Assembly (NCBI GenBank): GCA_051294905.1
Contig: CM119371.1
Span: 9,674,001-9,738,000 of the forward strand
Origin: Botryllus schlosseri
Lineage: Eukaryota
Direction: 5' to 3'
DNA length: 64,000 nt
In this document: positions 9,101-58,140 of the stretch, in pieces
Position numbering within the stretch: the stretch's first letter is position 1
Layout of the letters: each line of letters opens with the position of its first letter
Notes under the pieces: generated by a model
Told to the model about the DNA's origin: nothing
Seen by the model: only the letters and a program-made list of their open reading frames with translations
Databases searched by the model: none
Made by a program: the position numbers and the translations under genes

Positions 9101-9367
9101 TTTTGAAGAAAACGGTACAAGGCAGCGGCTTTATTCGTTAAATTAGGAATAAACGCGCGATAATAATTGACTTTGCCCAGGAATGCCTGTAGCTGGCGAA
9201 CATCCTGAGGTTTAGGCAACTGTTTGATTGCTTCAACGGATTTCTGAGACGGGCGTTTGCCGTCCTTGTCGATTATATGACCAAGATACTCGATACTACT
9301 TTTGAAAAATTCACATTTAGCGAAGTTGACGGTGAAACCGTATTCGGTGAGGCGCTCAAAGACCACG
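6197..9367 (-). pseudogene. pol: Truncated Gypsy pol (RT C-terminus, RNase H, integrase), split by hAT insertion
   Basis: KCEFF..IEYLGHII (RT end), TDASQFGIGAVL / YSQIEKEALSI / TDHKPL / NADGLSRLP (RNase H), HEGHWG and HLDFAGP / TDGGPQF / GEAERFV (integrase). Removing 6396-7607 plus one TSD rejoins PVTPR-QSVTHFEIG...RRHKNQLQPR in frame. gag, protease and the RT YxDD region are absent. Confidence 0.95.
6396..7607. mobile_element. hAT (Charlie-type) element inserted in Gypsy integrase
   Basis: TIR caggggttctca / tgagaacccctg; perfect TSD gtctaggc (6388-6395, 7608-7615). Confidence 0.95.
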
Positions 9368-9407
9368 CCGAATGGAGGCGTGGGTTCGAATCCCACTTCT
9401 GACACCA
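9368..9407 (-). promoter_or_regulatory. Primer-binding site complementary to tRNA-Leu 3' end (extended, 40 nt)
   Basis: Plus strand reads ccgaatggaggcgtgggttcgaatcccacttctgacacca = part of the variable arm, T-arm, acceptor stem and CCA of a eukaryotic tRNA-Leu (CAA-type as recalled). Confidence 0.92.
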
Positions 9408-9409
9408 AT

Positions 9410-9675
9410 TGTTATGTTCTTTGGTCTTGTTTGAACAATAACTCAATACGACGAGGTTGCAATAAGAAATCAGTATATTGTACAGCAGAATAACTATCAG
9501 ACAGTCGACACGATCCAGAGTGCAGTTGAATGAAAAGACCACGAGTCAACAGAACACAGGGTATAAATACAAGCACGACACACAAGGAAATAATGATTGG
9601 AGTTAATTACTAGTCCTATAGAAATTAGGAGACACGTAGGAAACAACACTGAAACGTAAATGCACGAACATAACA
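9410..9675 (-). repeat. 5' LTR
   Basis: Direct repeat of 5738-6003; followed on the minus strand after 2 nt by the TGG-starting PBS. Confidence 0.95.
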
Positions 9676-17428: not shown

Positions 17429-18630
17429 CACACGACTTCTTGCGCACGAGGCCTATTACAATTACAGATGCGATTGCTCAGGCCAACGGTTATGTAGGGC
17501 GCACCAGTCCTGTTGGAGATGCGACTGAATACGCGAGCGATTTATCTTGCGCACATGGCCTCTTGTGTATGCGATTGTTAAGGCCTGCCGTTGACGCGAT
17601 GAATCAGCAAGGATTGCCGCGCACGCTTGTAGCAATCAGCCACCTAATTTTGCTCGCGTACAAACGACAAACCAAGTTAGCAAGAGATCGCGTGCTGTGC
17701 CGACTCTCGTTAGCTGGCAACACGCTCCTTTATTTGGCAGCGTGTTACACTCCGTAATATGAATTACGGGGCACGATGGCTAGAGGTGATGCGCGATTGG
17801 AAACGAACATGAAGAAAGGTGTGATTTCAAGTTTTTTAGGGAGGGGAATTTTCTTCAAGGCTTGCTGTACCCATGTACAACACGCACCCCCTTCTTTGGG
17901 GCAAAACATCGGTTAAATTTTGCGCATTATACATGGAAAATTACGGTAGTTGATATTGAAGCAAAATCGAGGAATCGCGGATTAACTGCTGGACTCAATG
18001 GCTATCTTACGCGCACTTATACGCGTGAATTAGTCAACATAATGGAGCTTGTCCTATCCATGCATTACGGGCATTCACGCATGTACTTAATCATAATAAA
18101 TTGATTCCAACTTTGTAAATTTGAAACAATCTCAGACCCCTCCCTTTTTATTCAAACCCTCCCCTTTTTCATCTCGCCACCCCATGTAAAAATCGGCGCC
18201 TATGTGTGATGAGATATATTTTTGTTTTCACGACAATGGAGAAATTTGGTGTTCTACGAAGGCTTGCAGACTTGCGTAAGTTCTCCTCAGGTTAGTCAAG
18301 AAAAAAAACGCTGATTTAGAGAAATCCCGCGATTTTAATAGGGTAGAACGCGAGATGTGGGATAAAAATTTGCTATAGAAGTCCAAGGATTCGGCGATCG
18401 GGATTACTCGGGGAAAACGAGAAGAATAGTATTTCTTTAATCAAAGGAATGTGGTGTATTTGTGAGTATATATTTGTTCCATTAGAATTTTTTATTGCAC
18501 GATTTGGTGATTTTAATATGGACACCCCGCCCCCCTCAATCTAGTACAGTATATCACGTTTATACAGTCGAACGAATTGGCCATGACAAATCACGCGAAC
18601 TTTGTTATAGCAACATTTGAATTTGCCTAC

Positions 18631-18773
18631 CATATTTCCATAGTATCCAAACATATTTTGGTCCCTAATCCGGTCTGTGAAATAATCGGGCATGCTATAG
18701 TTGTACCAGCCAGAAATCAAATTCTTCACAGAAAAACTCTGCGACACGGCATGTAATATTGTTGCCCTGTAAT
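18631..18773 (-). CDS. Intelectin-like gene, exon 7 (non-intelectin sequence; gene continues further downstream)
   Basis: ttttcag acceptor 136 nt after exon 6, phase 1 matches; open frame DYRATILHAVSQSFSVKNLISGWYNYSMPDYFTDRIRDQNMFGYYGNM, gtaggc donor. Confidence 0.7.
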
Positions 18774-18909: not shown

Positions 18910-19072
18910 CGTTCCCAGCGGCAATAGGAAAGTGATCGCTGAATAATTTTTTTAGATTTCCTCCGTACTTCTGTAGAAATTGATTGGCCGACCGATATTT
19001 CAACATGGTTCCTGATTGCATTGAATCTAATTTCCCCTGACTGCGGACATGCCACACCATCACATCAGACGC
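18910..19072 (-). CDS. Intelectin-like gene, exon 6
   Basis: ASDVMVWHVRSQGKLDSMQSGTMLKYRSANQFLQKYGGNLKKLFSDHFPI matches intelectin A.D..IWHVPN........LRY.T...FL...G.NL......P; tttacag acceptor, gtaaga donor. Confidence 0.92.
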
Positions 19073-19298: not shown

Positions 19299-19390
19299 GT
19301 CTATTTTGTAATAGCCTTCATTTTTGTAGTCGTCTTGCATACAGTTACGTACATTCCCAAACGTTATTTGGTTTTCCCAGTTCGTCTTCC
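19299..19390 (-). CDS. Intelectin-like gene, exon 5
   Basis: GKTNWENQITFGNVRNCMQDDYKNEGYYKID matches intelectin G.GNWAN..TFG....ATSDDYKNPGY.DI; tcgcag acceptor in phase 1, gtaagt donor. Not in the ORF track. Confidence 0.93.
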
Positions 19391-20749: not shown

Positions 20750-23119
20750 CAGGAGTCACCAACCTTTTTGCAACCGAGGGCTACTTTTGCGTAATGATTG
20801 AAACGGCGGGCTACTATTTACTCCCGCCGTTTACCCGTGTCACACTGTATTTCCGCTTTGATATCCATAGCACTGGGCAGGACTGGACATCATGTTATCT
20901 GTTTCTATAACAGTCAGTGGGAAGCCTGGCATTGTATGAAATCAACTTGTGCGCTGTACTCTATGGTATGTAACTTGACACTGCAATTCTGAGTGAGTGT
21001 TCCAGATGTGCAATTAATTAGGCGTGTTTTGTGTTTGGTTTTGATGAAGTTCATGTCCGAAAAGGCTGATTCACAACAATAAGTTGAACCATAGACGCTT
21101 GCAACCTTCGTAGCTTCTGCGCATAGACCAGGCACTGGCGTCGCAGCATGTGCTGCCGCCCCTGGCTCTCGCTTAAAATGCCGCCCCTAAGTAGACAGCA
21201 GCAAATTTCGACATATATTGATTTCCAAACAATCTTTTCAATACAAATAATTACAAATAATATGCCGCATCTCAGCCTCACCGTCTCAACGTTAATAAGG
21301 CCAAAAATAATGCAGACGAGAAATAGCGAACGAATGTATTGTGCAATTAGAAAATCAATAGCCGCCTCAAAACTTGACTTTTCGGGCTTTCACTAAAGCA
21401 AAATCAGCGATAATATCTTCAAATTGAAGTTTTTGAACGTATTAGTCTCTTTCCATAGACAGAATGGATGGAGCTGATAGCCGATCATCATTCATGGTAG
21501 AACGTAAATAAGACTTGATCAGTTTGAGCTGTGAGAAGCTCCTCTCACAGCTTGCAATTGAAACACCAATGGTCAGATAAAGTTTCAGACACGAGCATAA
21601 ATATGGTGACGAATCAAGTAGCTTTTCATTAACTAACCACTGTAAAACATCAAACGCTGTTGCACTACGAATAAACGTGGTTTCACTGCTCCATACCAGC
21701 CTCTTAAATCTGTCAATTTCCACAGCTAACTCCAAAAAGTCCACCTCGTCGTCATAGATGCTTTTAAATCCGCTGGTGAATAAATTGTGACTTTCGCTTT
21801 GCAGCAGCGCGTGGGGATTAAAAAATCCATACTTGTAAGTGGTGTAGGCTATGCCGGGAAACCTAGTTTGAGCTTCAAGGTTAGTTGTCACACTTGAATA
21901 CCCAGACAGGCTTACTGCTGAGCCAGCTAAAAGCAGCATAATTGGTCATGGTCATCCTATAGTTGGCGCAGGCCCTCCGACCGCTCAAATTTAACAAAAC
22001 TGATCTTAATCGAAAGTTATTGTTGCCCTGATTCCGGAAATACAATTTAAATGCTGGTCTGAAAATTGGTATTGCTCCGAATAATCGCTCGATACAATTG
22101 CCATTATCATGGTCAATTGGTCAGTGTGTCGCGGCGCTCCGATTGTTAGGAACAATCAGCCTTGACGGCTATTTTGGAGTGGTTCCATTGCCATGTTAAC
22201 ATATTAATTCGTGTTTTCTGAATCAGCGCGACACTATAGCTTTTGATTGAGACCATTTGATTCAGTTTTACCTCACGGGATGTCAGCTTTTGGACTACCA
22301 ATTACGCTGCTTTTAGCCGGCTGTGTACAACTGTACAGTGTACACTGTGCAGTGTGCAGCCTCATTTTGCCGCCCCCTTGGAGCCTGCCGCCCCTGGCGC
22401 GGAGCCAGAACCGCCAAGTGGCTGCTACGCCACTGCACTGCTGTACTTTTCCGTATCAACAAGCCACCAAACGTTTGCTGCAGACTGAGGTGGGGGTAAT
22501 TTTGCAGTGTTACAATTTCAATCTCCAACGGTTCAGCATCCAGAAATGACAAGATTTAATTATACCGGACAGCAGCAACGATTACATAAAGTTAGAAACA
22601 TGGTATACTAAACTGTGTTGAGTGTAACAGAAACAAGCTGTGTCAAAAGATGCAATACGTAATGGGTATACAGATATCCAAAATCTGTTGGTACTTCACG
22701 GCAATCTAACTCCGAATAGTAATATTGTTTACTACTTTGGCATTGTCCTGGACGTCGAGCTATCATAACGGAGCCCCCGCCATTTCAGGAAGACCGTGAA
22801 TGTCATTCCGTCATGTAGCCTGTATATGCAATGCGCCGTATCTTCAATTTCTGGTGATTCTATCACATACATCTATATCTTAGTAATTGTAATTGAGGAT
22901 ATTTTTAAAGTGTTTATATATGTAAGTTATCCATGTTACTGTATTTTAAACAAAAATAGCTGAATCAAGCAATCTATATATTTAAAAGCTCGGTGGTGCA
23001 AATCTGAGGAATATTGGTAAATGCTGCCATTCCACCTATTTTTAGGACGGGCTCGCGGGATACTCACCAAGTCCTCGCGGGCTACCCAGGGCCCGCGGGC
23101 ACCGGGTTGGTGACCCCTG
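20750..23119 (-). mobile_element. hAT (Charlie-type) element with transposase remnant, middle layer
   Basis: Ends caggagtcaccaacc / ggttggtgacccctg; perfect TSD atgtaggc; remnant KVASVYGSTYCCESAFSDMNFIKTKHKTRL. Confidence 0.9.
21133..22435 (-). mobile_element. hAT element with transposase C-terminal remnant, inner layer
   Basis: Ends cactggcgtcgcagc / gctgctacgccactg (no clear TSD); ORF 21442-21939 has LKLYLTIGVSIASCERSFSQLKLIKSYLRSTMNDDRL (hAT dimerisation domain, ZMYM1-like type). Confidence 0.85.
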
Positions 23120-36254: not shown

Positions 36255-36624
36255 CAGGTGACCCGGCAGGTGACCAAACAGTTACCCACATGTGGCACAA
36301 GAGAAGGTTTTAAGTGGGGAGGTGATATTTCAGACTTGGAGGACAGATTCTAGGTGGATCAGTGCCTGATCATATTTTATTTATTATTTTTTGGAATTGG
36401 TGCAACAGTAGCTTTCGATCAAGATCAGATTCGAATGAAACTGCAAAATCGGTTGTTGCCGTTCCATGTTTAATTTCTATAGTTAAACTAAAACGTAAAA
36501 GGGTCAGACACAATATGAGACGCAATCGGACAGTTATAAAGGGTTCACTTTGGCGTTTAATTTTCCGTCTCATAAATGATTTTGAAATATTGGTTGAATG
36601 GACATTGGATATTTCTACTCATAC

Positions 36625-36754
36625 CTGTGTATTGCTCACCCCCAGTATAAGCGGACCATCTGTCGTCAAGTGCACATTTTGCAGTGATTTTGCTTTCATG
36701 AATGCTCGCAACCAACGTCCACCCACCTCCGTCAGTTTCCATTTCGCAATACGC
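36625..36754 (-). CDS. Intelectin-like gene, exon 4
   Basis: AYCEMETDGGGWTLVASIHESKITAKCALDDRWS matches the intelectin motif FCDMT..GGGWTLVASVHEN....KC..GDRWS; tgcatag acceptor and CAG|gtatga donor, ends in phase 1. Confidence 0.93.
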
Positions 36755-36839
36755 CTATGCAGAATGAAAAATAATTTGGAACGCATCGACAAAAGATTAA
36801 ACTCCAGCTTTTCATTTTACTGTAACCCAGATACAATAC

Positions 36840-36957
36840 CTCATACAGTTCGGTTCCGTTAACATCAAGGTTCAACGACTTGATTCCACTGCGATTGAAT
36901 CCTCGGTGTTTCAGGTCCAAGCAAGTTTCGCTGGTCGGATATATTGTACCATGTCCA
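36840..36957 (-). CDS. Intelectin-like gene, exon 3 (start of fibrinogen-like domain)
   Basis: SGHGTIYPTSETCLDLKHRGFNRSGIKSLNLDVNGTELYE resembles the SC..I.....DG.Y.L....G..Y segment of intelectins/FReDs; ttcag acceptor, GAG|gtattg donor, 85-nt intron to exon 4. Confidence 0.85.
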
Positions 36958-39900
36958 CTGAATTGTTTCATACCATAGGCATTTTGAAAATATGTATCAA
37001 TTTCCATTTTAAGAGTGTGAAAGTGGAAAAAGTGAAAAATAAATGTTAAATGTTAAATGATGTTAAAGTGAATGCGACCCTAATGCCATTACATCCATAT
37101 TGGCGCTGAAACATAATTTGGAATGTATGATGATGGTCAGCTACGTCAAAACAAATCGTAAGTGTCATAATTTTTATCCTTCCCGCAGTAACATGATCGG
37201 AATGAAATCAAAATCTCAATTCGATGCTAATCAACTTATATCTGTATTCATTGGTTTTTGTTTATTGGATCACGATAGGTCTATTAGCAATTTTCCTAGT
37301 TCAACGGTTAAGTTTATCAAAAATTTTATCGGCTCAATGCACCTCAGAAATTGCGATACAATGAAAAGTTAGGAAAAGATAGGTGTCGAAACTACTTGGA
37401 CTAGTCATTGAGATCAGATTATTAGGTGAGATTTCGTCACATGTAGATGGTTATCAGCAAGTTGGAGTGCGACATTAGAGTTGGGGGAGAGGGCTATTAG
37501 GATTAAGGGAGAGGGATATGTGACGTTGAACGTGGGAAATTCAAATTATAATTGCGGAAGTGCGGAGTTCACTGGTGACCGGTATCCCACATAAATTATA
37601 TTAACATAGAATTTTGTGGCCACAGCATATCTATTTCGCTCGAAACTTTATGAAAATTATGCACACAGCGCGAAAACAGCCGTTGAATGTATCGGTCTGG
37701 GTCTCTCTGTCTCGTTCGAAGAACATATAACTTCTACTTGGCAAACTGTATATAGCAAAAAGTAAGTAATTAAATCGCATAATATGACGAGATAGAAACA
37801 CCGGAAATTAGATTTACTTGATTAGGTGCAGCAAGTAGAGTAAAATTACTTGAGTGCTTACTAAAACTAGAAGTAGCCTACTTCGTTACTGACCACCTCT
37901 GATTTTTAGCTTATCCTGTGATTCTTACAGCGGACCGCCGAGGACTTCGTTCTCGGTATGGCATTGACGCAAAAATACGGCCAATTTTGTCTACCTATTT
38001 TAGCGAACGGGACCACTAAGGAAAACATTTCGTCGATGGATCACCGTGCCTTTAGCATCCGATAAATGAATTGCTCACAGCAGCCAACGCCACAAGGAAT
38101 GTATGCATATACATGTGGTTTATTTTCTCATATCATGCCTGCTGACGGCAGAAATTGCCATGCCGCTGCAGTAATGTATGCTTTTTCGCAGATGTCATTT
38201 TACTACCGTTGATAACCTGCATTTCGTGACGAAGGCACAATATATGACATACTATTACTAGGATTTTATGAAAATGTCTTAAGCAGATAATTCCACATCG
38301 TACAAAATTGTAGCAATCACGCCCTGTCGCGCGCTTATCTTATTAGTTTTTCCACTGAAGTCTGTCGGTTTGGTATCAAGTCGAATAATTTGAAACCTTC
38401 ATATGTTCTCTCGAGTGAATCCGGTAACCACGATTAGGCGAACCATTGGTATGAATTATGATGTCTCATAATGTAGATGCTCTGTAGTGAAGTACTTATA
38501 CGCAAACGAGGTCAGTAACCAAGTACTTCTACTTTTCCGAGGAACTTCCCTCTACTTGCAGTACTTGCTCCAGTAAATCTAGTATTCGGCTTATACTTAT
38601 ACTTCCAGTTATTCATATTTTCACTATTTAAGGGTTGTCAAGTAATATCACGTACTGCTAATAGGAGTGAGAGAAAATGAGACAAAGACTAAGAAAATTA
38701 GGCTGATTTCGCGGAGAGAGACCAGAATTGTTGTTATGCTTAGCGCGAAATATATATGGAGCAGACAATATCTTTCCAAGAAAGTCTCGATCAAGATAAT
38801 ATTTGCTGCCGTTATGTGCTTCATATGCGTAATTTCATGCTGTGACAATTACATCACAGCAAAAAGAACAAATCAAAACGTTGATGATTGTTTTCAATTG
38901 CTTTCCTAATCTAATAAAGCATTTATGTAGTATCCGATACAATTTCAATACGGTCAAAAAATACACGTGAAGATGGCTTATTTGGCACATGACTAGAAAA
39001 TCAGAATAACTCAACGGAGAGTACAATCGGAAACCGGGTTTCCGAGCACCACGTCGGACAAATGGCAGTTTTTTAGTAAATTCACCAGCGATCATAGTTA
39101 GGTGAATACATTTCCCGATTATATATCCTATTTTTCGGATCCGTAAATATGGGGGTTAAAATTTGTGTCTAGATCGATAAGAGGACGATGAGTCGAAAAA
39201 GTTGGGCAACCACTGGTATGAAACAACATTTTCAATAGCAAAGTAATCATTTGTAACCCATGATGCGGTCGAATCCTTATAGTGTTGAATATAGCCTATA
39301 TATGTATATGTATATATATCCTGCAAGGGGTGTATAGCAAGACGAACACCAAGCCCACTGCGCCATCTGTATTTCCTTGTTTGACGGTCCGTGAGAGCAT
39401 ATCTGTGGCTACAAAAGCTACTTATTATGTACTTGAGTCGTTTTCAAAGAAATAAAATTATACCACTACTTGAAGTGGTTTTAGGCTGCTTCGAAAATAA
39501 CTAGGAGCCTCATTGACTACTTTAATCACTCATATGTTCGCTGCTTATTGAAGAAATTATGCAACTACGAACACAATGCGTACCACAAGAAAATACTTTA
39601 CAGCAGCTACACGGGCCTTTCGCAAATCCGGGCCAAAAAGCACTTCGTCAGCCGACCCCAAAAAACGCTGGGTTTGGGCCCCCGCTGGGCGATGACCTAA
39701 CCTTCTGGGGGCTTCACTCCTAGACCCGACAGTTGGGTCGATGTTTTGACCCATACTTGTGAGCACATTCCTTCTACACAGTATAAGCAGAGAGTTTATG
39801 TGATATGTAGCTTAATCGCGCCAATAGCGAAAATTTTCGATCATTCATGATTGAATCGACTTTCTCGCAGCCGAATTTTTGGAACACCTTTCGGAGTCAC

Positions 39901-41060
39901 ATGTTAGCCTAAACTTCACTATAAGTTGGTAAGTCGTGGCGCGGTAATGGCTGACGCCATAATCCCGATTTCTCTAAATCATGCGTATTTCTCGGAGAAT
40001 GGCACCTAAGAAGCAAGACATTTAGTGACACTAAAACGCGCCATGCGCGTAAAGAAATTTGAAAACTGTTGGAAAAAGTTTCAAGAGATACGCTATGATT
40101 TATGCGCATTTGCAAAATAATATTGGGCCCTTTTCAAGCTCGGCCCCACTCCAATTTGGCGGCTTCGGGTGCCCCCGTTATGGTCCTGCACAATACGAAT
40201 GAATCGAAAATGAATGATCACGCAAACTGCGCTGTTTAGCGATGTGTCAACTCGTATACGTACTGCACTTGTCGCTCGCATGTCGTCAAAGGAGACGTCT
40301 TGAACTTATAGTCAAATCGAACATGTTTCCAGCCCTAATATTATATCACGAAGTTCTGAATCAGTTCAAAATTTGATGTTGTATTTATTTTATCAATGGA
40401 CAAGCCTTCAACATTGCATCTTGAAAGTAAGGGATAAAATTGTAATATACCTGACAGACCGGCAAGAATGTTGTCGCGGACCGGCGGTTGAGAACCACTG
40501 ATATATAGTACTTTCACAAACAAGCACAGGTTACTACTTATGAATAAACTACTTATATTCTATAATTTCTTTTCGAATTAGTAGCTGTGGGATAAGTTTG
40601 CATCGCTTTTATATGATGATTTGTCATAAGAACTGCGTGAAATAGACCACTGTATATGGTAGCTGAATATACTTTCGATTGTTCCTCCTTTTTATAGCTC
40701 TACTAGTCATTTTACTTTAGACGCGTCTAGCAATTTCAAAAGTAGCCACATCCGAGTAACTACTCATAGTATGCAACCATTCACAAAAGATATCCTTCGA
40801 GCCCCTTACTTTACTGAATAATTTTCAAATCTGTCACTCGTTTTTCCACTTTAACCGTCCTTGACATATGATGGAAATTTACCGGTAATTACGCAGAAAT
40901 TCACCTTGCTACTTCTACTTCTGCTTAAGTAGCAACGCTGACTATACGTAGAGGTTGGCCACATTTGCTTATAACGGTCACATCAGACCTCATATCTAAA
41001 ATATTACCTCAGTTGTGTTCACTGATTCATATATCGGTCAAATGTGGTTTGAATGCTCAC

Positions 41061-41259
41061 CTGCAGGTGCATCCTTCGGAATTATCTTCGGAATTAGGAG
41101 AATTCCGTGCTAGTAATATTGATAAAGTAACCAGAAATGCAACAGTTGAGCACAAGGTGGTTATTCTCCAAACATTCATCCAATTTCTCTTCTTAGGCTC
41201 CTGTGCTATATTGACATTGTCGTATGACTGATTTATCCTTGGCTTTGTAGCAAGGCCAA
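41061..41259 (-). CDS. Intelectin-like gene, exon 2 (tail, hydrophobic segment, stalk)
   Basis: Open frame FGLATKPRINQSYDNVNIAQEPKKRNWMNVWR-ITTLCSTVAFLVTLSILLA-RNSPNSEDNSEGCTC; ttacag acceptor and CAG|gtgagc donor; ends in phase 2, matching the phase-2 start of exon 3. Confidence 0.75.
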
Positions 41260-41388
41260 CTGTAATATTTTATTGTGAGGTTTTTAGTATGCCAACATGG
41301 AAGGACCAGGCATATATGTTTCCCTAACACTTATACTCGAAAAGCACCGATATATGATTTCTCCGTAAGTATAGATGAAAATACTCAC

Positions 41389-41449
41389 ATTTCGTGTAGA
41401 CCTGATTTACTCTGCTCAAAGTTTCTTCGTATGCATGTTGATCTTCCAT
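41389..41449 (-). CDS. Intelectin-like gene, putative coding exon 1 (cytoplasmic tail: MEDQHAYEETLSRVNQVYTK)
   Basis: ATG at 41449 with an in-frame upstream TAG; 61 nt ending in phase 1 at a gtgagt donor, matching the phase-1 acceptor (ttacag) of the next exon across a 129-nt intron. Confidence 0.65.
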
Positions 41450-42800
41450 TTCATAGTCCTATGAGACTACGAAAGTTAAACAAAACACAAAAAGATGAAG
41501 GTTGGTTATGACTAGACGCTAGCTTAGAAAACATCAAATTTCCTGCGACAAAATGTATATCAAATTTCCCCTATTCATACCGACTTGTTTTGCATAACTC
41601 CCCATGCAATTATTCCCACGAGTATCGAAAGTGTTCAAGAAAAACGAATCATTCAACTATATGTGGTGTCGCAAATACGACCACCAGGTTTATCTGCTCT
41701 GGTAGCATAGATATGAAATGATATCATAGTAATAGACGGCAAATCTGTAAGTAATCCTACAATGCAATTTGGTCTGGATCGATCGACCAATATTTTATGT
41801 CTTCGCTATCCGCTTGAAACTAAGATTGCAGTGTACTAATAATGTTGACTGCCCAGCGTTTCCCTACCATAATATATCGTTTCATCAAGTCCGTGAACAA
41901 ACCGGGAATTCCTATGAATACACATCAATAATATTTCATCATTCATAATTGGATATGAGGGAGAGGTATGTTGATGTAAGGACACAGTTCGATAATACGA
42001 ATATGATGCAGACTATAAATATTAACCGGAATTCGTACCATGGAATGAGGGGGAAATGATGTCATTGACTATTTCCTGTACAAAATTGTGTTTGTTAGCT
42101 TGTGGCCCACATATCACATATGAGGGTCAATATGTCTTATGTCTCTAAATCAGTGCTTTTCAACCTGTGTGACGGTTTGCACTAGTCCGAATGAAAAAAA
42201 TTTCAGTGCGAATGACAAGCATCATGCAAATGAAAAATCCGGATGAGCGCGAATAAAAATTATCCATGTTTTTCACTTTTTCCGACGTGGAGTAATTTAA
42301 ATGAATGTAATTAGTTATTAAATACAGTGAGCCCGTAACTTTTGTCGTTTGGAAGCAATTCTAGAAACTTGTTGGTAGCTATAGACTTTTCTAGTTCACA
42401 AGTTAGGAACGCTACCCATCCCTGTATATTGCAAAGTTTGAGAGAACAGTTCCGAGCGAGAGGATTACGTCACTGCCTGGAAAATAGTAGTGGAATCAGT
42501 ATCACTGTTGCTCGGAAACATCCGCCGCGTACGGACCTTGTAGGAATGTAGGCAATAGTAGCCGATGCCAGTGTTGACATTTGGCATATTTGATTGCAAA
42601 CTATTGGAATTTTGGCACATATTTATGTTCGTTAACAGCAGAATTTTGCGTTTCTTCAACTATAACAATTAGCCCATTAGATCTATAACAAGTGTTGTTT
42701 AATCGTGTACCAAACCAAGGATTAGAGGCTGCTAAAAATAACATTAGTGCAAGCACATTGGTTACGTCCGATGAATATTTATCTTGCATTACGTCGAGAT

Positions 42801-45180: not shown

Positions 45181-48100
45181 CTATATATACAAGTTACATG
45201 CAATAATAAACTCGGCGACCGGCGTAAATAATTGCGGCATAGTGAGTAAATTGGTTAAAGTAAGCGGTACATTGAGCGTGGTACAAGCGTAGGCAAGAAA
45301 TGTTCGGTGAAAGTCATATTTTTCGCAATGCAAGAGTATGTGGTCAACCGTGTCGGGGACGTAACACACATTACAAAGGGGGGAGTCGGCGCAACCTATT
45401 TTGAATAGGTGAGCCGCCAGGCGACAGTGACCGGTTTGGAGGCGAAACAGGATTTTTTCAAATAGGCGATTTCGGCAGGAATCTGGCGCCTCTGTTGCTA
45501 TAGATGGTCGCAACATCCGGTAGTGGTGCCCTCTCTCCTCTGCAGTGAACTCGGCCTGCCATTGGTCTCTGCAGAGCTTTCGGGTGACCGCTTTCGCCTC
45601 TGATAATGTTACGGTTGGGATATCGATACCGGGTTCCCGCGATTGACTTGATGCAGCCCGAGCTAGTTGGTCAGCCTTCTCGTTGCCCTCTATTCCGGCG
45701 TGACCTGGTATCCAGGCAAATGTTACCATGCCACCCGTGGTCTTTATCTGTGAAAGAATATCAAATGAGAGATATATTTCCTTATGCGGCTTACGGGTAT
45801 GCGGGGATGACAACGCCCTCAGGGCCGCCAGGCAGTCGGAAAAAATCACATAGCGTCGATTCGTGGAGCTGCTGTGTTGTAGTATCCACATCATCGCGAA
45901 GACTATAGCTTTCAATTCGGCTGAGAATGAGGAAGATAGAGTCGGGCAAGCCCGATTATAGCAATACGAATATTCTGGGACGTAGACCCCAAGTCCAGCA
46001 CCATATTCAGTCTTTGAACCATCAGTAAATATATGGACGTGTTCGCCAAATCTTTCAAAGATAAAGTCGAGACATCTACATTTGATGTACTGGGGTACGT
46101 CCTGTTTCGAGACTAACCTAGATAGGTCGATATCAACGCATGGAATCGGTAAATCCCACGGAGGGGAAGGGGAATCGAATCGCTCGATCACCATGTTTTC
46201 AAAACAAGCTGCCTTCGTTAGCGTGTTAAAAGTATTGAATCTCGGATTTATAACACGATATATTTCATGCCACGAGTCTTCGATAATGTGCCGAGATGAG
46301 TGGCTGCTCGCTGGATGACTAAGCAGAAGACATCGGTAGTTTAGGCTTAGGTATCTATGGCGAATGTGCGGAGGCATTTCGCAACAGGATGCTTGCAATG
46401 CGCAAATCGGTGTACTATGCATAGCTCCGCAGATAATTCGAAGTGCCTTGTTTTGGATTTTCTCCACCTTCACCAGGTGGGATTTCGGGGCGAAGAAGTA
46501 TGCTGGCATTCCATAATCGGTAAGTGATCGTATCATTGTCCTATAGATTATCAGTAGCGAACTCTTGCCAGCGCACCACGAGGTTCCAGTCAGAAGACGC
46601 AAAGCGTTCAATCTGTTGCTACATTTCTTCTCGAGATACTCTATATGGCATTTATATGACAACAATTTATCGAAAACAACCCCAAGATATTTAAAATTGT
46701 CTACAAAGCTGAGTTGCGTGCCGCCGATACGTAGAGACACGGATGGCAGTGATCGCTTTCTTGTGAATAGCATCGCCACCGATTTCGTGTGCGATATTTT
46801 GAAACCCCACTGTTTACACCACAGTTGAATCGATGTTAGGGCTAACTGGACCGCAGAGATGTTGGATTCCACGGATAATCCACTTTCCCATATAGCACAA
46901 TCGTCCGCGAATAATGCATGCTCACACTGAATAACTGTAGGAAGGTCATTAATCATCACGGAGAAGAGTAATGGCGAAATAACGCAACCTTGGGGTAAAC
47001 CATTTTCTAGAATGTGATATCGCGACAACGAGCTACCCACGCGGACTTGGAAGGTTCTGTTTTTTAGAAATTCTGAGATCCACCTAAGCATGTTTCCTTT
47101 AACCCCCATTTGTGACAGCTTGTGGATGAGGCCAGTTCGCCAAACCATGTCGTATGCTCGTTCTATATCAAGAAAAACTGCCGCCACCGATCGTTTATTA
47201 TGTAACGCTTTATAAACAGTGTCATGGACTCTCAGAATATGGTCGAGCGTGCTGCGACCATGGCGAAAACCCGATTGACATCTATTTAGCAGATTCTTGG
47301 ATTCCAAGTACCATCGTAATCTGTTCGTGACCATAGTTTCCATAATTTTACTGATGTGACTTGTGAGTGAGATGGCGCGATAGGACTCCGGCCTAGTTGA
47401 CTCCTTGCCTGTTTTCAAGATTGGGGTGACGATGGAGTGTTTCCAGGCCCCCGGAACGCATCCTGTTCCCCAAGAGCTATTTATAAGGGCAAGAAGCTTG
47501 ACAACAGCAGCGGATGATAGACGTTTGATCATTGCATAGCAGATGGAGTCATCTCCGGGTGCCGTGCTTTTGCGTGACCGTAATGCAACATTAAATTCTT
47601 GTAGCGTAAATGGTCTATCGAGAGGACTATTTAGATTATTTTCATTAACCATGTCGCTGATGGGGTGTGATTTTTCGAAATCGGTTTTCGTGAGCAGGAA
47701 GTCAGGGTCGTAGTTTTCGGAGCTGCTAACGGAAGCGAAAGTCGATGCCAGCATATTTGCCTTGCTCAAGTCGCCGATGGCGTTACTGTTATTCGAGATA
47801 AGAGATGGTATAGACATGGAGCTGTATTTACCCGAAATCGAACCAATCGTTTTCCAGACCTTCGCTATTCCCGAATGACTGTTGAGGGTATCGCAGAAAC
47901 GTTCCCAACTTAAGCGTTTTGATCGCAATATAGTTCGGCGACATTCGGAGCGGCGTTTTTTATATTCTATGACGTCACGCGTGGTGAAACTACGTTTCAT
48001 CATTTTGAAAGCTGCTCTTTTGCGGCGGATGGCGCGAGCGCATTCCGGTGTCCACCACGGTACTGGGATCTTGTCTGTGGATCTAGAGCGCGGAATGGTT

Positions 48101-48918
48101 TCGGTGGCTGCGCGATTTAAAGCGTCGACAAAAGTGGAATTTAATGTTTCCACATCATCCTCGAGTACACCCGCCAGCGAATCGTCGACACATATTGAGA
48201 ACCTCTCCCAATCAGCTTTCCCAAGCAACCACTTCTGGGGTCTAGGCGAGGAGCGAGTTATTCTGTCATTGATTGTTGTAAAGATAACAAAATGATCGCT
48301 TCCTATGAGGGTGTCGGAAACGGAAGTGTTGCATCGCGCGGCAATATCACCAGAGGCTACGGTCAAGTCCAAAAGAGACCACCTGTTTACTGCCGTTGTG
48401 GAGATGTTCAGACGAGTGGGCTGGGATGAGTTCAGCAAAACCAGGTTGTGTTGGTCGAGGGAATCGTAGATCGCTTTGCCTCTGGCGTTCAAGCAGTGGC
48501 TCCACTGTAGGTGGTGGGCATTGAAATCGCCGCAAATGAGTGACCGAGAGGAAAAGTGACGTAGGCATGCAAGATCGTTGCTGCCGATAACAACGTCGGG
48601 GGCCATATAAACGTTACAAATGTTTATTTATTCCGCTAACGTTAACGCATAACATTTCAAAACACGCCGATTGAAACCATAGCCAATCGAGGATGACAAT
48701 GACTCGTGCACAAATGTGACGAGGCCACCGGAGTGTTATGTCTTATCTCGTCGATACAGATGGTATCCCCGTAGCTTCGGGGAGTATTTCGCAACGAGGT
48801 GCGTCTCTTGAATGAGTATAACATCCGGTTTAATGGTTAGGGTGGATACAAATTGTTTGAACTCGTTCAATTTTCTATATATGCCGCGACAGTTCCATTG
48901 GAGAATAGAGAGTGTTCT
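45181..48918 (-). pseudogene. LINE ORF2: APE endonuclease, RT, RNase H, C-terminal CCHC
   Basis: ILQWNCRG, IQETHL, GDFNAHH, GSDHF (APE); GLPQG, FADD (RT); FTDGSK, SAELKAI, FSDC, WIPGHAGIEGNEKAD (RNase H); CNVC..DTVDHILLHC. 1141 aa open from 48606; two in-frame stops between about 48625 and 48740 disrupt the endonuclease. Confidence 0.95.
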
Positions 48919-51042
48919 ATTGAACTTTGCTGCCTTGCGAGACCGGAGAAGATTTATCGACGGAGGGATCTGATGTGTTTGATGCTTGCTGCAATAGATC
49001 GGATTCGACAGAGTAGCCGAAGTATTTACTCGATGCCTTAGCCACGATGTCGAAGATGTTGCTGTTTCCAGTTTTGTATGCTGATACCGTTAGCTGTACA
49101 ACCTCCGCAACAAGCGACAATAGCTGAATTGGGTTGATATTCAAGCTGGACATGGATGTGGTTTGTTTCTGTCGATCTTCACTAATTTGGCTGGGTACGA
49201 CAGTTGAGTTTGAGAGATATCTAAGGTCGCCGTCGTTAGGGGCGGGTGAAGTATAACAACTTGGTTCCTTATTGTTTGTTGAAGACCGGGCTGTAGTTTT
49301 ACGACGATGATGCACTTCGGAATACAGTGTCTTAGCAGAGGTGGTCTGAGAGGTTTCAGAGGTTCGAGATCGTACGATTTCCTTCGCCTCTGTGAAAGAC
49401 ACGTTTGTGCGTTCTTTAACAATTTGAATTTTAGCTTCCTCTTTGTAGACGGGGCATCCTCCATACCCTGCGCTATGCGGTTGGTTACAATTAACGCATT
49501 TTTTCAAGTTAGGGCAATCCTTGTATTCGTGATCACGACTGCTGCATTTCGCGCAAGTAAGTTTACCGCGGCACGAATTCGCGGTGTGACCGAAGCGGTT
49601 ACATTTAAAGCACCTAGTCGGGGGTGGATTATAATGTATTGTCCTAAAGCGAAGATATCCGATTGAAATGAATTCTGGCACTTCCTTGGTACTAAAACAA
49701 AGTAACACCGAGAGACTGTCGGAGACTCCGTCTTCTGGCCTTCTCTTCTTGAGTCGCTTGGCGTAAGTTACATGATAGGTGGCGAAGCTGTCCAATAACT
49801 CGGCGTCCGTTACGTCTAATGGAACACCCGTAATTACAGCTCTGCTGGCGAACGGCCTCGGTGTAAATTTCGACGTTTCGATTGGGATATCGGTATGCGT
49901 CACTGGGTCGCTTAGACTACCGCATGACAACAACTGCGTAACCTGCTTGTGATTGTGACAGGTGATGAGCAAAGAACCGGATTTGTGAAGAGGTTTGATG
50001 TCTTGATAATTGGTGATCAACGCGGACAACGCCCTGTTCACCACTGTTGGGTGATAGCGCAGAATAGACCTTTGTTGTCCTAAAATCACCACTTTCCTAT
50101 CTATGTTATTTTCGTTGTTATCGGGAACAATGCTGGTTTGTGCCGCTGGCGGAGAAACTGTGTTTGCAGGAGGTCGGGAGACACTCCCGGACGTGGGAGA
50201 ACAAACAATATTTGCATTAACATTAGTAGTGCTAGTTTGTAATACAGAATTCTCATCCGCTACTGCATACTTTCGAGCGGGGATTTTGCTCCCACTCGGT
50301 TGAAGCCGGTCACTAACGCCATCACTAGGCTCGTCACTATCCGATGATATAGGATCGGTCGGTTTACGCCAGGGCTGGCCAACCTTTTCGGCCAAAGGAC
50401 CACATTTGATCGACGAACTTTTGTGCGGGCCACTATCCGCGCGAAGCGCGAAAAAAATTTGAAGTTCATAGGTCAATAATATTGTCACTTGACTATATTG
50501 CGGGCCTGCTGTATATCGCTGGGCTAAGTTTCCGAGGACTGGGCTATTCGGTGCATGGACAGATCGATATCGAAAGCTGTGACCAACATGCGTCAATCAT
50601 TTCGTGCCTAGGTTTCATGGTCGACGGTCTTACTGCGAGCGCAAACGCAAGGTCGCATATGTTGAACGACACTTTGTCTCGTAATCGCGAATATAGTTGG
50701 ACTCAATCTGATACATTAGGTGTTCTTCCATTTTCACTGAAGGGCAACAATATTAAAAACAAGAAATCGAGTGACAACATATTGCGCTAAGCTTGTAGAA
50801 AATTTTTACCTTGATAAATCTATCGCAAATTATTCTGATCTATTGTAGTGTACGAAGATATACCAATATGTGAATGGCTGATGGATCTGTCAATGCGTTG
50901 GAACTGATATGTTAGTCATCACATCTCAAGTATTGCGGCCGGACTAATCAAATTTTTGGTTGGCCACTCAAAACCTTCTCGCGGGCCACAGGTTGGCCGG
51001 CCCTGGTTTACGCTTTGCCCTCGTATGTTGTATGCCCTCCAT
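48917..51042 (-). pseudogene. LINE ORF1 (gag-like, three zinc knuckles), interrupted by a MITE
   Basis: CFKCNRFGHTANSC, CAKCSSRDHEYKDC, CVNCNQPHSAGYGGC; removing 50370-51005 plus one TSD gives the start MEGIQHTRAKRKPTDPISS from the ATG at 51042. Confidence 0.93.
50370..51005. mobile_element. hAT (Charlie-type) MITE inserted in LINE ORF1
   Basis: TIR cagggctggccaacc / ggttggccggccctg; perfect TSD gtttacgc. Confidence 0.95.
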
Positions 51043-56366: not shown

Positions 56367-57379
56367 ATCTATGTCCAGTTTTCAGTTGTTCATATACTAG
56401 GGTTGCCATACGTCCGGAATTTCCCGGACATGTCCGGAATTTCACTGTTCAAGCTAGCGTCCGGGAGGAATTTCTAAAATATGCCAAATGTCCGGAATTT
56501 TGAAGACTTAACGTGGGCTCATAATTTTTTCGTAAATCAACATAAAAACAATATTTTTTGGGAATATTTATGCTGATGCATCATATTTTTTTATCGTGCT
56601 GCGCGCGATTTACTATCACATTTATTGATTTTAATATGGAGACTACCACCCTCGCAAAAACTGCAATAAAATATAAATAAAAACAACCTTCATTTATCGG
56701 AATAAGCCTAATTGTAAACGCAATTATAGGAGAACGGTATATTCCTAGAGATCGTCAAGGCGGTTTAAAGGCTTCATTCAAAGATAGTGGTTCCAAATGG
56801 GGGGGGGGGTGGGAGGGGGGACTTATGATTTGATATTTTACACCTTGTAGCCTACTTTATAGTCCTACTGTTGTTGACAGGCCATTGTCGGCTCATTGTG
56901 AATCATAAGCGTTCAACTGATACAATTAGGTTGTCATGTTGTAATGCTCAACGTAACGCAATATCCTAACTGTAGCAAGAATGCGTGGGCATTGGTTCGT
57001 ATATCATGGATCGCATGATAGAAATTCGTGATGTAGACAGCATTGTCAGAATGAAGCAACAGGGTGTGTCTCATCTTCAATTGTTAAAAATTACCTATTC
57101 TCGAATGTAGAATGAATGACACATCTTGGTTAAACTTGAAATTTAATATGCATTTAAATATATTATTATTCATCCCATTTTACGACTATTCCATACTGTG
57201 CGAGAGCAAAGGAAAGTAAGATGACTGAGATGGTAATTTCACTCTAGATCTGCGTGCTATATCTCACAACCTTACATCGACTCATAGTTCATACGACAAA
57301 ACGTCAAAGATAAAATATCAATATAGTGGAACGAATATCTTCAAGTGAATGGCCGTATGTAGTTGGACGTGTGGTGGCG

Positions 57380-58140
57380 AGTAATTCGCAGTCACTGCTT
57401 CTGTAAGATTTGTTAGCAGAGGGGTTTGAATATGTGACTCTCAGAAAATTCCAAAGTGATCCGATTGAAAGAAGGTTCCCGCGGTATAGGCAAATGAGTG
57501 GCGGGAGATTTCTGGTGGGTTTAACGGAAGTTACCAATTCTGAAAAGATAATTTTGCTCCGACCCATCCTAAAAATTGAGGTAAACTACTGGGAGCATGA
57601 TATTGGTGTTTCAAGTTCAACTCATCTTGATCATTTCAAACAAGTCATTGAAGATGTGGCGATTGAAATTACCGAATCAGTTGTATCTCCTGACAGCGAG
57701 GACGTGTTTTATGTTGTGGCTGGGTACACAGGTAAGAAGTTCCTCGAAAAATTGTCTTGTCAAATATGTCATGAGTCCTTTTTTGATGCGTCATGTGGCG
57801 CAAGTTCACGGTATTTCGACTTACTCGATCGCGGGGGACTGCTTGCTCCCTCAGAACCACTCGCCAAGTTTGTTGCATCCTGTTTTCAATCCTAGATGGT
57901 TCTGATAAAATCATCTGTTCTTACCTCCAAGTTGCAGTGAGGGAAGCTGGTCAATATGTTTTGCATCGTTTTGAAGGACCTCAAGTTTTTCATGTTGGGA
58001 TCATTGAGATCGAGCTTTAAAATTGGCGGGCAAAATCATTGTTAACATATATAATATAATAACAAGGAGAAGCTGGTAAATGCCTCTGTGAGAATACTGT
58101 CGTGAAGGACTTTCAAAAGCGGCAGTTAAGCAAGACGTAA
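57380..58140 (+). pseudogene. P-element/THAP9-like transposase C-terminal remnant
   Basis: GFEYVTLRKFQSDPIERRF..YRQMSGG, YVVAGY..KK, C..C, LDRGGLLAPS are typical of P-type transposases; frameshifted after about 57890. Confidence 0.82.

Follow-up and report, generated by a model that had tools for sequence, protein, structure and literature searches.

Intelectins (X-type lectins) are regarded as soluble, secreted proteins whose role is to tag microbes, and the characterised intelectins are secreted. FIBCD1, a lectin from another subfamily of fibrinogen-related domains, has an N-terminal cytoplasmic tail, a signal anchor, a coiled-coil stalk and an extracellular fibrinogen-related lectin domain, and is described as an endocytic receptor for acetylated ligands. 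Dectin-1 and CLEC-2 are type II lectin receptors built on yet another lectin fold, with a short N-terminal tail that carries an acidic stretch and a tyrosine near the initiator methionine. In the abstract of one published account, intelectins are 'multimeric secreted proteins' (PMC8324875). Our literature search found no published membrane intelectin.

The window analysed here is a 64,000-nt stretch of the Botryllus schlosseri genome. The interval 36625-41449 covers no more than the 5' portion of a minus-strand gene that is intact and has 14 exons (gene A; Table 1). Gene A takes up 58.7 kb: it begins at window position 41449 and extends past the start of the window by 17.2 kb, with seven of its exons lying beyond the window; the first of these, exon 8, is found 28.3 kb after exon 7. 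All 13 introns are GT-AG, and the 606-residue product has an intact frame with one terminal stop. Against the family HMM it scored 495.1 bits as a single domain in the final model (469-475 bits for alternative models). The first-pass annotation had proposed four exons with matching phases, encoding a tail of ~52 residues, one 19-residue hydrophobic segment, a Cys-Thr-Cys stalk and an intelectin domain, all of which were confirmed by splice sites, phases (exons 1-4 start in phases 0, 1, 2 and 0 and splice into an open frame), hydropathy and PDB matches. The ATG of exon 1 is preceded by an in-frame stop three codons upstream, exon 3 has a weak tblastn match with Styela homologues over 36932-36882, and exon 4 shares 75% identity with a protein of Styela clava. 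Exon 7 ends in a weak donor (gtacta) immediately ahead of an in-frame stop, and is supported by a family HMM alignment that reaches 18553 and by an exon of identical length in a paralogue. The intron before exon 5 is 17.2 kb long and contains a hAT transposase remnant; both this and the 28-kb intron are crowded with transposon remains. Since its exons are small, divergent and scattered over such a distance, with 17-28 kb introns among them, gene A is easily cut short by gene predictors.

Table 1 Features of gene A located in the window (positions in the 64,000-nt stretch).
Feature	Position	Strand	Length (nt)	Acceptor / donor	Content
Exon 1	41389..41449	-	61	/ gtgagt	ATG at 41449 and first 20 tail codons
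Y7 codon	41431-41429	-			In exon 1
Y18 codon	41398-41396	-			In exon 1
Exon 2	41061..41259	-	199	ttacag / gtgagc	Remaining tail, anchor, short Cys-Thr-Cys stalk; K-K-R-N-W basic cluster
Y33 codon	41224-41222	-			In S-Y-D-N-V, exon 2
M48 codon	41179-41177	-			In exon 2
Hydrophobic segment	41108..41164	-			Predicted signal anchor, residues 53-71 (Kyte-Doolittle)
Exon 3	36840..36957	-	118	attcag / gtattg	Stalk end and start of fibrinogen-related part, intelectin domain
Exon 4	36625..36754	-	130	gcatag / gtatga	Intelectin core with G-G-G-W-T-L-V-A-S
Exon 5	19299..19390	-	92		Intelectin domain
Exon 6	18910..19072	-	163		Finishes N-terminal part of intelectin domain
Exon 7	18548..18773	-	226	/ gtacta	Begins inserted beta-rich domain

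Two paralogues were used for comparison. Because the lengths of all 14 exons and the GT-AG sites are preserved in paralogue B, 58 kb upstream of gene A, and paralogue C has a matching 61-nt exon 1 (same phase, GTGAGT donor) that precedes its exon 2 by 3.9 kb, the gene model is more than a chance assembly of reading frames. The paralogous copies of exon 2 show 86% and 47% identity, the latter in paralogue C. Three more paralogues in the same genome have tail-plus-anchor exons bearing Y-E-x-V, and a genome search returned 71 matches, with gene A sitting in a cluster of many copies and fragments. A lone last-exon relic was observed at 57310-57387, and gene A, but not B, has an ATG in another frame 5 nt ahead of its start codon.

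The lectin domain is of the intelectin type. When exon 4 was searched against the PDB, the best four matches were all intelectins (E 3.4e-14 for 7e1e_A to 7.5e-11 for human intelectin-1, 4wmq_A), with fibrinogen and ficolins at 3.7e-4 or above and FIBCD1 (4m7f_A) at 0.041. The intelectin-type core C-x-M-x3-G-G-G-W-T-L-V-A-S is present in the N-terminal fibrinogen-related subdomain. Exons outside the window match Styela long forms over residues 485-595 (E 6.7e-13, 1.9e-7 and 3.6e-5), and gene A shares with these forms a C-terminus of L-I-F-Y-R followed by the stop. One C-terminal exon matched residues 199-246 of 4wmq_A (E 0.026), and the last two exons, searched singly against the PDB, gave no match. 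The AlphaFold model of a Styela homologue that is 37% identical to gene A (P0007; pLDDT 81.1) superimposes on 4wmq_A with a Z score of 38.2 and an rmsd of 1.9 Å over 268 of 283 residues, the two intelectin halves aligning to chain residues 31-184 (N-terminal) and 199-306 (C-terminal). Between them, in place of a loop of ~14 residues, lies a beta-rich insert of ~240 residues that belongs to no Pfam family. The calcium-bound sugar site of human intelectin-1 comprises Asn260, Glu262, His263, Glu274, Trp288 and Tyr297, residue types that agree with the letters of the aligned chain at these numbers. At the aligned positions P0007 and gene A have Ser/Gln, Glu, Tyr and Val/Ile, with the Trp shifted by two and an uncertain loop alignment; in gene A, the first Glu is kept, and Gln, Tyr and Ile stand in for Asn, His and the second Glu. 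As these residues are only partly kept, intelectin-type glycan binding by gene A is not assured.

Gene A thus has its domain in common with the secreted intelectins (human intelectin-1, 4WMQ/4WMY; Xenopus XEEL, 4WMO; lamprey serum lectin, 7E1E; exon 4 E 1e-11 to 3e-14), but differs from them in its insert, its partly conserved ligand residues, its 52-residue tail with an internal anchor and the absence of an N-terminal signal peptide. Its overall design is like that of FIBCD1, which has no insert and belongs to another domain subfamily (exon 4 E 0.041 versus 3e-14 for intelectins), and the resemblance is architectural, probably convergent. The full architecture of tail, anchor, stalk and intelectin domain with insert is shared with predicted proteins of Styela clava (LOC120342979, P0007; LOC120335122, P0005; LOC120347880, P0010), Ciona intestinalis (LOC100185179, P0018) and Phallusia mammillata (CAB3262707, P0036), to which an earlier 591-residue model of gene A was 26-37% identical over 451-574 aligned residues. 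The stalk is very short in gene A; in P0006 and P0007 it is long and rich in Ser/Thr. No published function was found in the literature for these tunicate relatives. Judging from its sequence, gene A is one of the membrane-anchored intelectin-like proteins that make up a subfamily distributed across the ascidians.

Residues 52-72 are the sole region of the 606 residues with 19-residue windows of Kyte-Doolittle mean at or above 1.6, peaking at 2.15 over residues 53-71; the next-best window elsewhere reached 0.68. No cleavable N-terminal signal peptide was found in gene A, whose first 25 residues have a mean hydropathy of -0.71, and the 15 residues preceding the segment carry a net charge of +3, the 15 following it one of -2. 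Gene A therefore combines the three sequence features of type II proteins: no N-terminal signal peptide, a single hydrophobic segment and a more positive N flank. Among the 22 homologue entries listed, the N side was more positive in 19, with two ties and one reversal, in a fish protein. The family is mixed, with an internal anchor in 29 of the 90 assessable sequences, an N-terminal hydrophobic stretch in 22 and neither in 39; members with the tail-anchor-intelectin layout were found among predicted proteins of Clavelina lepadiformis as well as of Styela, Ciona and Phallusia. The AlphaFold model of P0007 shows the anchor as a helix, predicted with confidence, over residues 29-59. The signal anchor proposed from the first reading is well supported by the single hydrophobic segment, the positive N side and the layout of the homologues, and paralogue C, which has Lys in place of Met48, argues against a start at M48. 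Judged by hydropathy and the positive-inside rule, the protein is most likely of type II topology, with the tail cytosolic and the lectin outside, and we hold the gene model together with type II anchoring with good confidence.

In the comparison of A with C, the tail is constrained relative to the anchor plus stalk, with a dN/dS of 0.37 (0.274/0.744) versus 0.85 (0.746/0.883). Y-E-E-T and Y18-T are identical between A and C, the Y7-Y18 spacing of 11 residues is kept, Y33 is kept in C and S-Y-x-N-V is found in all three paralogues. Between A and B, the dN/dS of the tail is 1.03 (two synonymous and nine nonsynonymous changes) and B has His in place of Y7, so that constraint on the N-terminal tyrosine is not universal. 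Across the family, tails are marked by Tyr-Glu near the N-terminus (12 of 21 tails; shuffle mean 4.05, with none of 5000 shuffles reaching 12) and by Y-x-x-V-x-I/L (4 of 21; 0/5000 shuffles), although the sequences are related and the shuffle counts hence overstate independence. Tyr accounts for 6.6% of residues 1-30 versus 2.5% of the remaining tail. A bare Y..V, by comparison, is a short common pattern (5 of 21 tails, matched by 377 of 5000 shuffles). Gene A and its tunicate relatives have in common both family hallmarks and K/R-x-W before the anchor; a Y-E-x4-Y-x-N form, seen in 6 of the 21 tails, is absent from gene A.

The reading of Y7 and Y18 (Y-E-E-T and Y-T-K-F, 11 residues apart) as a non-canonical ITAM found no support: a regular-expression scan for the canonical ITAM (YxxL/I-x6-12-YxxL/I) matched none of the 21 family tails, gene A included, nor did a hemITAM-like pattern of acidic residues followed by YxxL/I. 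The ITAM label thus fails; Y7, moreover, is replaced by His in B. Gene A differs in this from Dectin-1 and CLEC-2, whose hemITAM it lacks; it has Glu after Tyr, and Thr, Phe or Val at +3. The YxxPhi motifs proposed at the same time fared better in part, as Y-T-K-F and Y-D-N-V fit the sequence pattern and Y-x-N-V recurs in the three paralogues, but YxxPhi itself is not a conserved feature, the commonest residue at Y+3 across family tails being Glu. What stands of the proposed tyrosine tail is thus the retention of Y7, Y18 and Y33 in C under constraint, without the ITAM. The tail probably has a conserved function; that it acts through phosphotyrosine signalling in particular is less likely and a tentative suggestion.

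Our findings have to be weighed against other readings of the locus. The protein could be an anchored precursor of a secreted lectin, its hydrophobic segment serving only for ER targeting before removal by signal peptidase or a sheddase and its tail having no receptor role. The secretion of characterised intelectins fits such a course, as do the A-B tail dN/dS of ~1, the moderate hydropathy of the anchor (2.15 versus 2.6-3.6 in many homologues) and the end of the segment, where an Ala before R-N-S could suit a peptidase site. However, a tail more conserved between A and C than anchor and stalk, and motifs kept family-wide, would be unexpected in a discarded pro-region, and on general grounds a hydrophilic extension of 52 residues before a 19-residue core suits a signal anchor better. 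We therefore consider this origin unlikely, although the ectodomain may be cleaved or shed. A related possibility is that the 5' gene model is wrong and that an ordinary secreted intelectin-like protein starts at M48, since the N-V-W-R that follows it and the hydrophobic core together have the look of a cleavable signal peptide with a small residue at -1; exon 1 and the junction 41389/41259 had no reads in the sampled RNA runs. Yet paralogue C, with Lys for M48, keeps the tail in frame (~29 of 52 positions identical) behind its own 61-nt ATG exon, homologues in four genera have, as does gene A, Met followed by Tyr-Glu within ~5-20 residues, and two of the homologue records, from Phallusia, have ENA/EMBL-type protein accessions, which we take to be cDNA-derived. 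Such a start is very improbable.

Gene A might also be an unexpressed or decaying duplicate, the silent half of a recent tandem duplication within a large cluster, with tail motifs that are mere relics. When ~6-13% of the reads from four RNA runs were sampled, none were assigned to gene A exons and no exon junctions were seen; exon 4 drew only four reads, in run X8, which probably come from a paralogue since each has three adjacent mismatches. The many copies and fragments nearby, the last-exon relic, the transposon-filled introns, the weak exon 7 donor and the upstream ATG found in A and not in B would likewise suit decay. Against this, the RNA sampling was shallow and from unspecified tissues, and the 606-codon frame and every splice site are intact over 14 exons and 58.7 kb. 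Moreover, dN/dS versus B is 0.34 over 553 codons (0.23-0.33 in the intelectin parts), and of the four tail differences between A and B that C can polarise (out of nine), A is ancestral at three. Silence or decay of the copy is thus quite unlikely, and gene A may be expressed.

Gene A is best explained, and with more confidence than doubt, as a type II membrane-anchored intelectin-like protein with a 52-residue N-terminal tail, a signal anchor at residues 53-71, a short cysteine-bearing stalk and an intelectin domain interrupted by the insert. Its ectodomain would bind a glycan or other surface ligand, and its tail would couple binding to uptake or to tyrosine-kinase/SH2-type signalling, for which Y7 (Y-E-E-T), Y18, Y33 (S-Y-D-N-V-N-I) and the juxtamembrane K-K-R-x-W cluster are candidate elements. 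Any function as a signalling or endocytic receptor would follow from this putative coupling. More speculatively, ascidians may possess a family of surface pattern-recognition receptors on the intelectin fold, with a sugar-enzyme-like beta-supersandwich insert and a tail wired to phosphotyrosine signalling through family-specific elements (Tyr-Glu motifs, Y-x-N and Y-x-x-V-x-I/L). The tyrosine-tailed type II lectin receptor, a design found in vertebrate Dectin-1/CLEC-2 and in FIBCD1, would then have arisen separately in ascidians, and gene A would be a working member of the family; we regard this wider proposal as possible but doubtful.

Ascidians are the closest invertebrate relatives of vertebrates, and if the preferred explanation of a membrane-anchored lectin is true, ascidian lectins with a conserved, tyrosine-rich cytosolic tail would directly link the recognition of glycans to the response of the cell. 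They would be a second, independent case beside the C-type lectin receptors and FIBCD1, in which the large inserted domain may add or alter ligand specificity.

The four exons from which the first-pass annotation had assembled an intelectin-like receptor are the 5' end only of a larger gene (gene A). They are as had been described; their splice sites are canonical GT-AG throughout, their start phases are 0, 1, 2, 0, and the spliced product consists of a 52-residue hydrophilic tail, a hydrophobic segment, a Cys-Thr-Cys stalk and then the intelectin core. An in-frame stop lies three codons 5' of the ATG. When exon 4 was compared with the PDB, solved intelectins were matched at E values of 3.4e-14 to 7.5e-11 and FIBCD1 at 0.041. 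A protein search returned 14 candidates, seven of them at E ≤ 0.001 (top identity 75% across exon 4), and the nearest database relatives were predicted proteins from the ascidians Styela clava and Ciona intestinalis. The GC content of the window, part of an assembly of 495.5 Mb, is 36-47%. The final gene model has 14 exons and 13 GT-AG introns spanning 58.7 kb, and its 1821-nt coding sequence encodes 606 amino acids and ends in a single terminal stop. It scores 495.1 bits as one domain with the family HMM versus 469-475 for three earlier models. Two exon placements were rejected using this HMM: splicing of exon 7 from 18631 straight to exon 9, since the HMM carries exon 7 on to 18548, and an "exon 8" at -10160 that proved false, the true 76-nt exon being at -9720..-9795 in both gene A and its upstream copy, paralogue B. 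Just before the start codon, gene A has an out-of-frame ATG where paralogue B has ATA. Pyrimidines dominate a tract 10-20 nt 5' of the start codon; as it ends in AG, it could be an acceptor to which a 5' UTR exon or a trans-spliced leader is joined.

Gene A and its genomic setting. Positions are those of the window unless in Mb; negative positions lie before its start, and C numbers denote contigs (C1, CM119371.1).
Feature	Position	Strand	Details
Out-of-frame ATG	41452-41454	minus	5 nt before gene A start codon
Exon 1	41449-41389	minus	ATG; GT-AG; start phase 0
Exon 2	41259-41061	minus	GT-AG; start phase 1
Exon 3	36957-36840	minus	GT-AG; start phase 2
Exon 4	36754-36625	minus	GT-AG; start phase 0; intelectin core
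Exon 5	19390-19299	minus	Styela long forms as guide, tblastn and two HMMs
Exon 6	19072-18910	minus	Styela long forms as guide, tblastn and two HMMs
Exon 7	18773-18548	minus	Styela long forms as guide; part of insert; weak donor gtacta
Seven further exons	-9720 to -17243	minus	beyond window start; tblastn/HMM
Insert, ~240 residues	18548-18773 and exons -9720 to -13258	minus	residues 274-520 of Styela P0007; interrupts intelectin domain
hAT transposase dimerisation-domain remnant	21442-21945	minus	in 17-kb intron of gene A
LTR-retrotransposon pol remnant (RNase H, integrase)	7513-9411	minus	in 28-kb intron of gene A
LINE-like retrotransposon frame and 559-aa frame beside it, between paralogues A and B	45181-48627 and 48917-50596	minus	
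Lone intelectin last-exon relic	57310-57387	minus	translation ends S-T-I-L-I-F-Y
Last exon of paralogue B	64246-64349		just past window end
Stretches with partial RNA reads	36425-36484, 40473-40507, 42151-42183		
Tandem clusters of long-form intelectin-like exons	C1 9.66-10.01, 10.43-10.84, 12.78-12.80 Mb; C5 19.79-19.87; C7 22.54; C10 10.72-10.82 Mb		

The exon encoding the tail and anchor has three matches in the genome, with identities of 100%, 86% and 47%. Paralogue B, 58 kb upstream, is collinear with gene A (DNA identity ~71-94%), retains the lengths of 14 of 14 exons and has an intact frame. The A-B dN/dS ratio is 0.34 overall (553-codon model); the two parts of the intelectin domain give 0.33 (N-terminal) and 0.23 (C-terminal), and the insert gives 0.27; the tail ratio of 1.03 comes from 2 synonymous and 9 nonsynonymous changes only. 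Paralogue C is found ~155 kb away. Its exon 1, detected by local alignment (score 44 vs 28 and 23 for the other two frames), is 61 nt long with gene A's phase and a GTGAGT donor, and lies 3.9 kb above its own exon 2.

The type II signal anchor proposed for this protein agrees with the features of its sequence. Residues 53-71 form a single 19-residue hydrophobic segment (Kyte-Doolittle 2.15), which is the sole window of the entire product reaching 1.6, the next best being 0.68; the first 25 residues have a mean hydropathy of -0.71, that is, they are without an N-terminal hydrophobic stretch, and the N-terminal flank is positive (net charge +3 in the 15 residues before the segment, -2 in the 15 after). 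Comparative evidence gives stronger support for this topology than gene A's own sequence. In every close homologue from the 14-candidate protein search, the intelectin domain is preceded by a tail at the N-terminus and a single, strongly hydrophobic segment. Using HMMER with the Styela clava long form P0007 (LOC120342979) against 1.84 billion representatives, we found 1044 proteins at E ≤ 0.001. An anchor census was then based on 177 sequences: the 150 best of these 1044 matches, cluster members, and genes A and B. Assessment was not possible for 87, in which a Met start or an exact G-G-G-W was missing or the domain lay a long way from the N-terminus. Among the 90 assessable sequences of this census, 29 had an internal anchor, 22 an N-terminal hydrophobic stretch and 39 neither; the anchored members bear names from Styela clava, Ciona intestinalis, Phallusia mammillata and Clavelina lepadiformis. 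The N-terminal flank was the more positive in 19 of 22 entries listed, with two ties and one reversal, in a fish protein. Finally, AlphaFold modelling of P0007 from an alignment of 23 sequences (mean pLDDT 81.1) predicts the anchor with confidence as a helix, residues 29-59, and shows the tail and the stalk on either side of it as disordered.

A competing interpretation is translation from M48 followed by cleavage of a signal peptide. It is weakened by paralogue C, which has Lys at this position while the upstream tail is still in frame. A type II anchor is well supported for gene A by sequence and homology, and such an anchor may nonetheless be cleaved or the ectodomain shed. The sole non-tunicate "anchored" case among the matches listed is a cluster from the fish Centroberyx (P0049, P0166-P0172), some of whose predicted isoforms have 37 additional residues ahead of the hydrophobic segment (339 aa vs 295-297 aa); this probably reflects a variant gene model for an ordinary signal peptide.

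We compared the exon 1 peptides of gene A (MEDQHAYEETLSRVNQVYTK), paralogue B (MEDEHTHEKTLRRVNQDYTK) and paralogue C (MNGQSTYEETFCGAGQAYTL). Y7 (in Y-E-E-T) and Y18-T, spaced 11 residues apart, are common to gene A and the distant paralogue C, whereas Y7 is lost in B. In exon 2, S-Y-x-N-V and the juxtamembrane P-K-K-R-x-W-x-N-V-W-R are kept in all three. In the comparison of A with C, dN is 0.274 and dS 0.744 for the tail (ratio 0.37) versus 0.746 and 0.883 (ratio 0.85) for the anchor plus stalk, indicating that the tail is the more constrained part.

Tyrosine motifs were then assessed in 21 non-redundant family tails, leaving out P0151 (weakly hydrophobic, not anchor-like), P0165 (whose tail is that of P0025), other isoforms and the fish cluster. 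Since the tail sequences are related, the counts from 5000 shuffles are not probabilities: Tyr-Glu occurs in 12 tails, with 22 of 53 tyrosines followed by Glu (shuffle mean 4.05; none reached 12), Y-x-N in 10 (5 shuffles), Y-E...Y-x-N in six, gene A not among them (0 shuffles), and Y-x-x-V-x-I/L in four, including gene A (0 shuffles), while a bare Y..V, in five tails, is unremarkable (377 shuffles). Tyrosine accounts for 6.6% of residues 1-30 but 2.5% of the remaining tail. A heuristic screen of the 10 kb 5' of the intelectin core exon in nine other paralogous regions of the same genome revealed tail-plus-anchor exons with Y-E-P-V, Y-E-M-V or Y-E-T-V in three. The tail exon searched against longer proteins in the database gave 15 candidates, none of which scored. 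The likeness of Y7 and Y18 to an ITAM did not hold up: neither a canonical ITAM nor, in a pattern scan, a hemITAM is present in any of the 21 tails, and the label is therefore rejected. Conserved tyrosine-bearing tails were found in relatives, although Y7 itself is not kept in paralogue B. These findings suggest a weaker claim, that the tail of gene A is a conserved tyrosine-bearing module. Tyrosines followed by acidic residues, Y-x-N and Y-x-x-V presumably resemble kinase-substrate, SH2 or adaptor-binding motifs. Ascidian haemocytes possess ITAM-type signalling, according to a review (PMC5465252).

The predicted ectodomain differs from a plain intelectin in carrying an insert within the domain. 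The alignment of P0007 to human intelectin-1 is split in two, pairing residues 119-273 with chain 31-184 and 521-632 with chain 199-306, so that ~247 residues stand where intelectin-1 has a short loop. Gene A is organised alike, its insert lying at approximately residues 255-490. No Pfam family was found for the insert, and Pfam did not bear out the "Reelin domain" in the UniRef name of a Ciona fragment. On its own, the insert is also present in other multidomain proteins, which contain CUB, Sushi, VWD or trypsin domains. In the P0007 model the insert forms a confident beta-sandwich and a long helix. VIA-align recovered the intelectin part (Z 38.2), as did Foldseek (TM-score 0.86 on target), and matched residues 295-510 to galactose-mutarotase-like supersandwich domains (glycoside phosphorylases, mutarotases, polysaccharide lyases) at Z 7-9.6, middling values that make this fold class a lead only. 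The last two exons alone had no matches in the PDB. Of the residues that form the calcium-bound sugar site in human intelectin-1, only some are retained in the gene A and P0007 alignments, and the ligand of gene A may thus differ from those of secreted intelectins.

Long-form intelectin-like exons have at least 71 matches in the genome (70 of 163 candidates scored), and together with the several tandem clusters this indicates that the intelectin-like family is strongly expanded. Between A and B lies a LINE-like retrotransposon with one long frame encoding endonuclease, reverse transcriptase and RNase H; a 559-aa frame beside it had no Pfam match. The last-exon relic lies downstream of paralogue B, and no further exons of the same copy were detected around it.

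Expression was assessed by aligning ~6-13% of the reads from each of four same-species RNA runs (X5, X7, X8, X9) to 36400-42400. The 20, 10, 38 and 43 reads that aligned did so nearly all partially, on repeats, and apart from four mismatched exon-4 reads in X8 the sampled reads gave no exon coverage, exon joints or starts over this region; they speak neither for nor against gene A expression. Some reads from the four runs matched three short stretches before running into unlike sequence, and these stretches probably belong to expressed repeat families and not to gene A. A sequencing-run search listed no RNA run carrying gene A sequence. For 41040-41470, 0.49 and 0.44 of sampled words were present in two runs whose kind is not stated; by our own arithmetic 200 of the 401 words are wholly exonic, so the half-share fits spliced RNA, but equally DNA with ~2% divergence, and is a lead only.

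Intelectins are treated as secreted lectins, and intelectin expression in the Styela endostyle is noted, in published work (PMC6321704, PMC10980280, PMC9953650). Neither in these papers nor in our full-text literature search did we find a membrane-anchored or transmembrane intelectin; the family survey of Yan et al. 2013 may bear on this. Our combined findings confirm and extend the initial observation on gene A. Gene A is a candidate receptor only, and, as judged from predicted proteins, the membrane-anchored intelectin with an insert is a form found across ascidians that has hitherto been represented only by unnamed database predictions.
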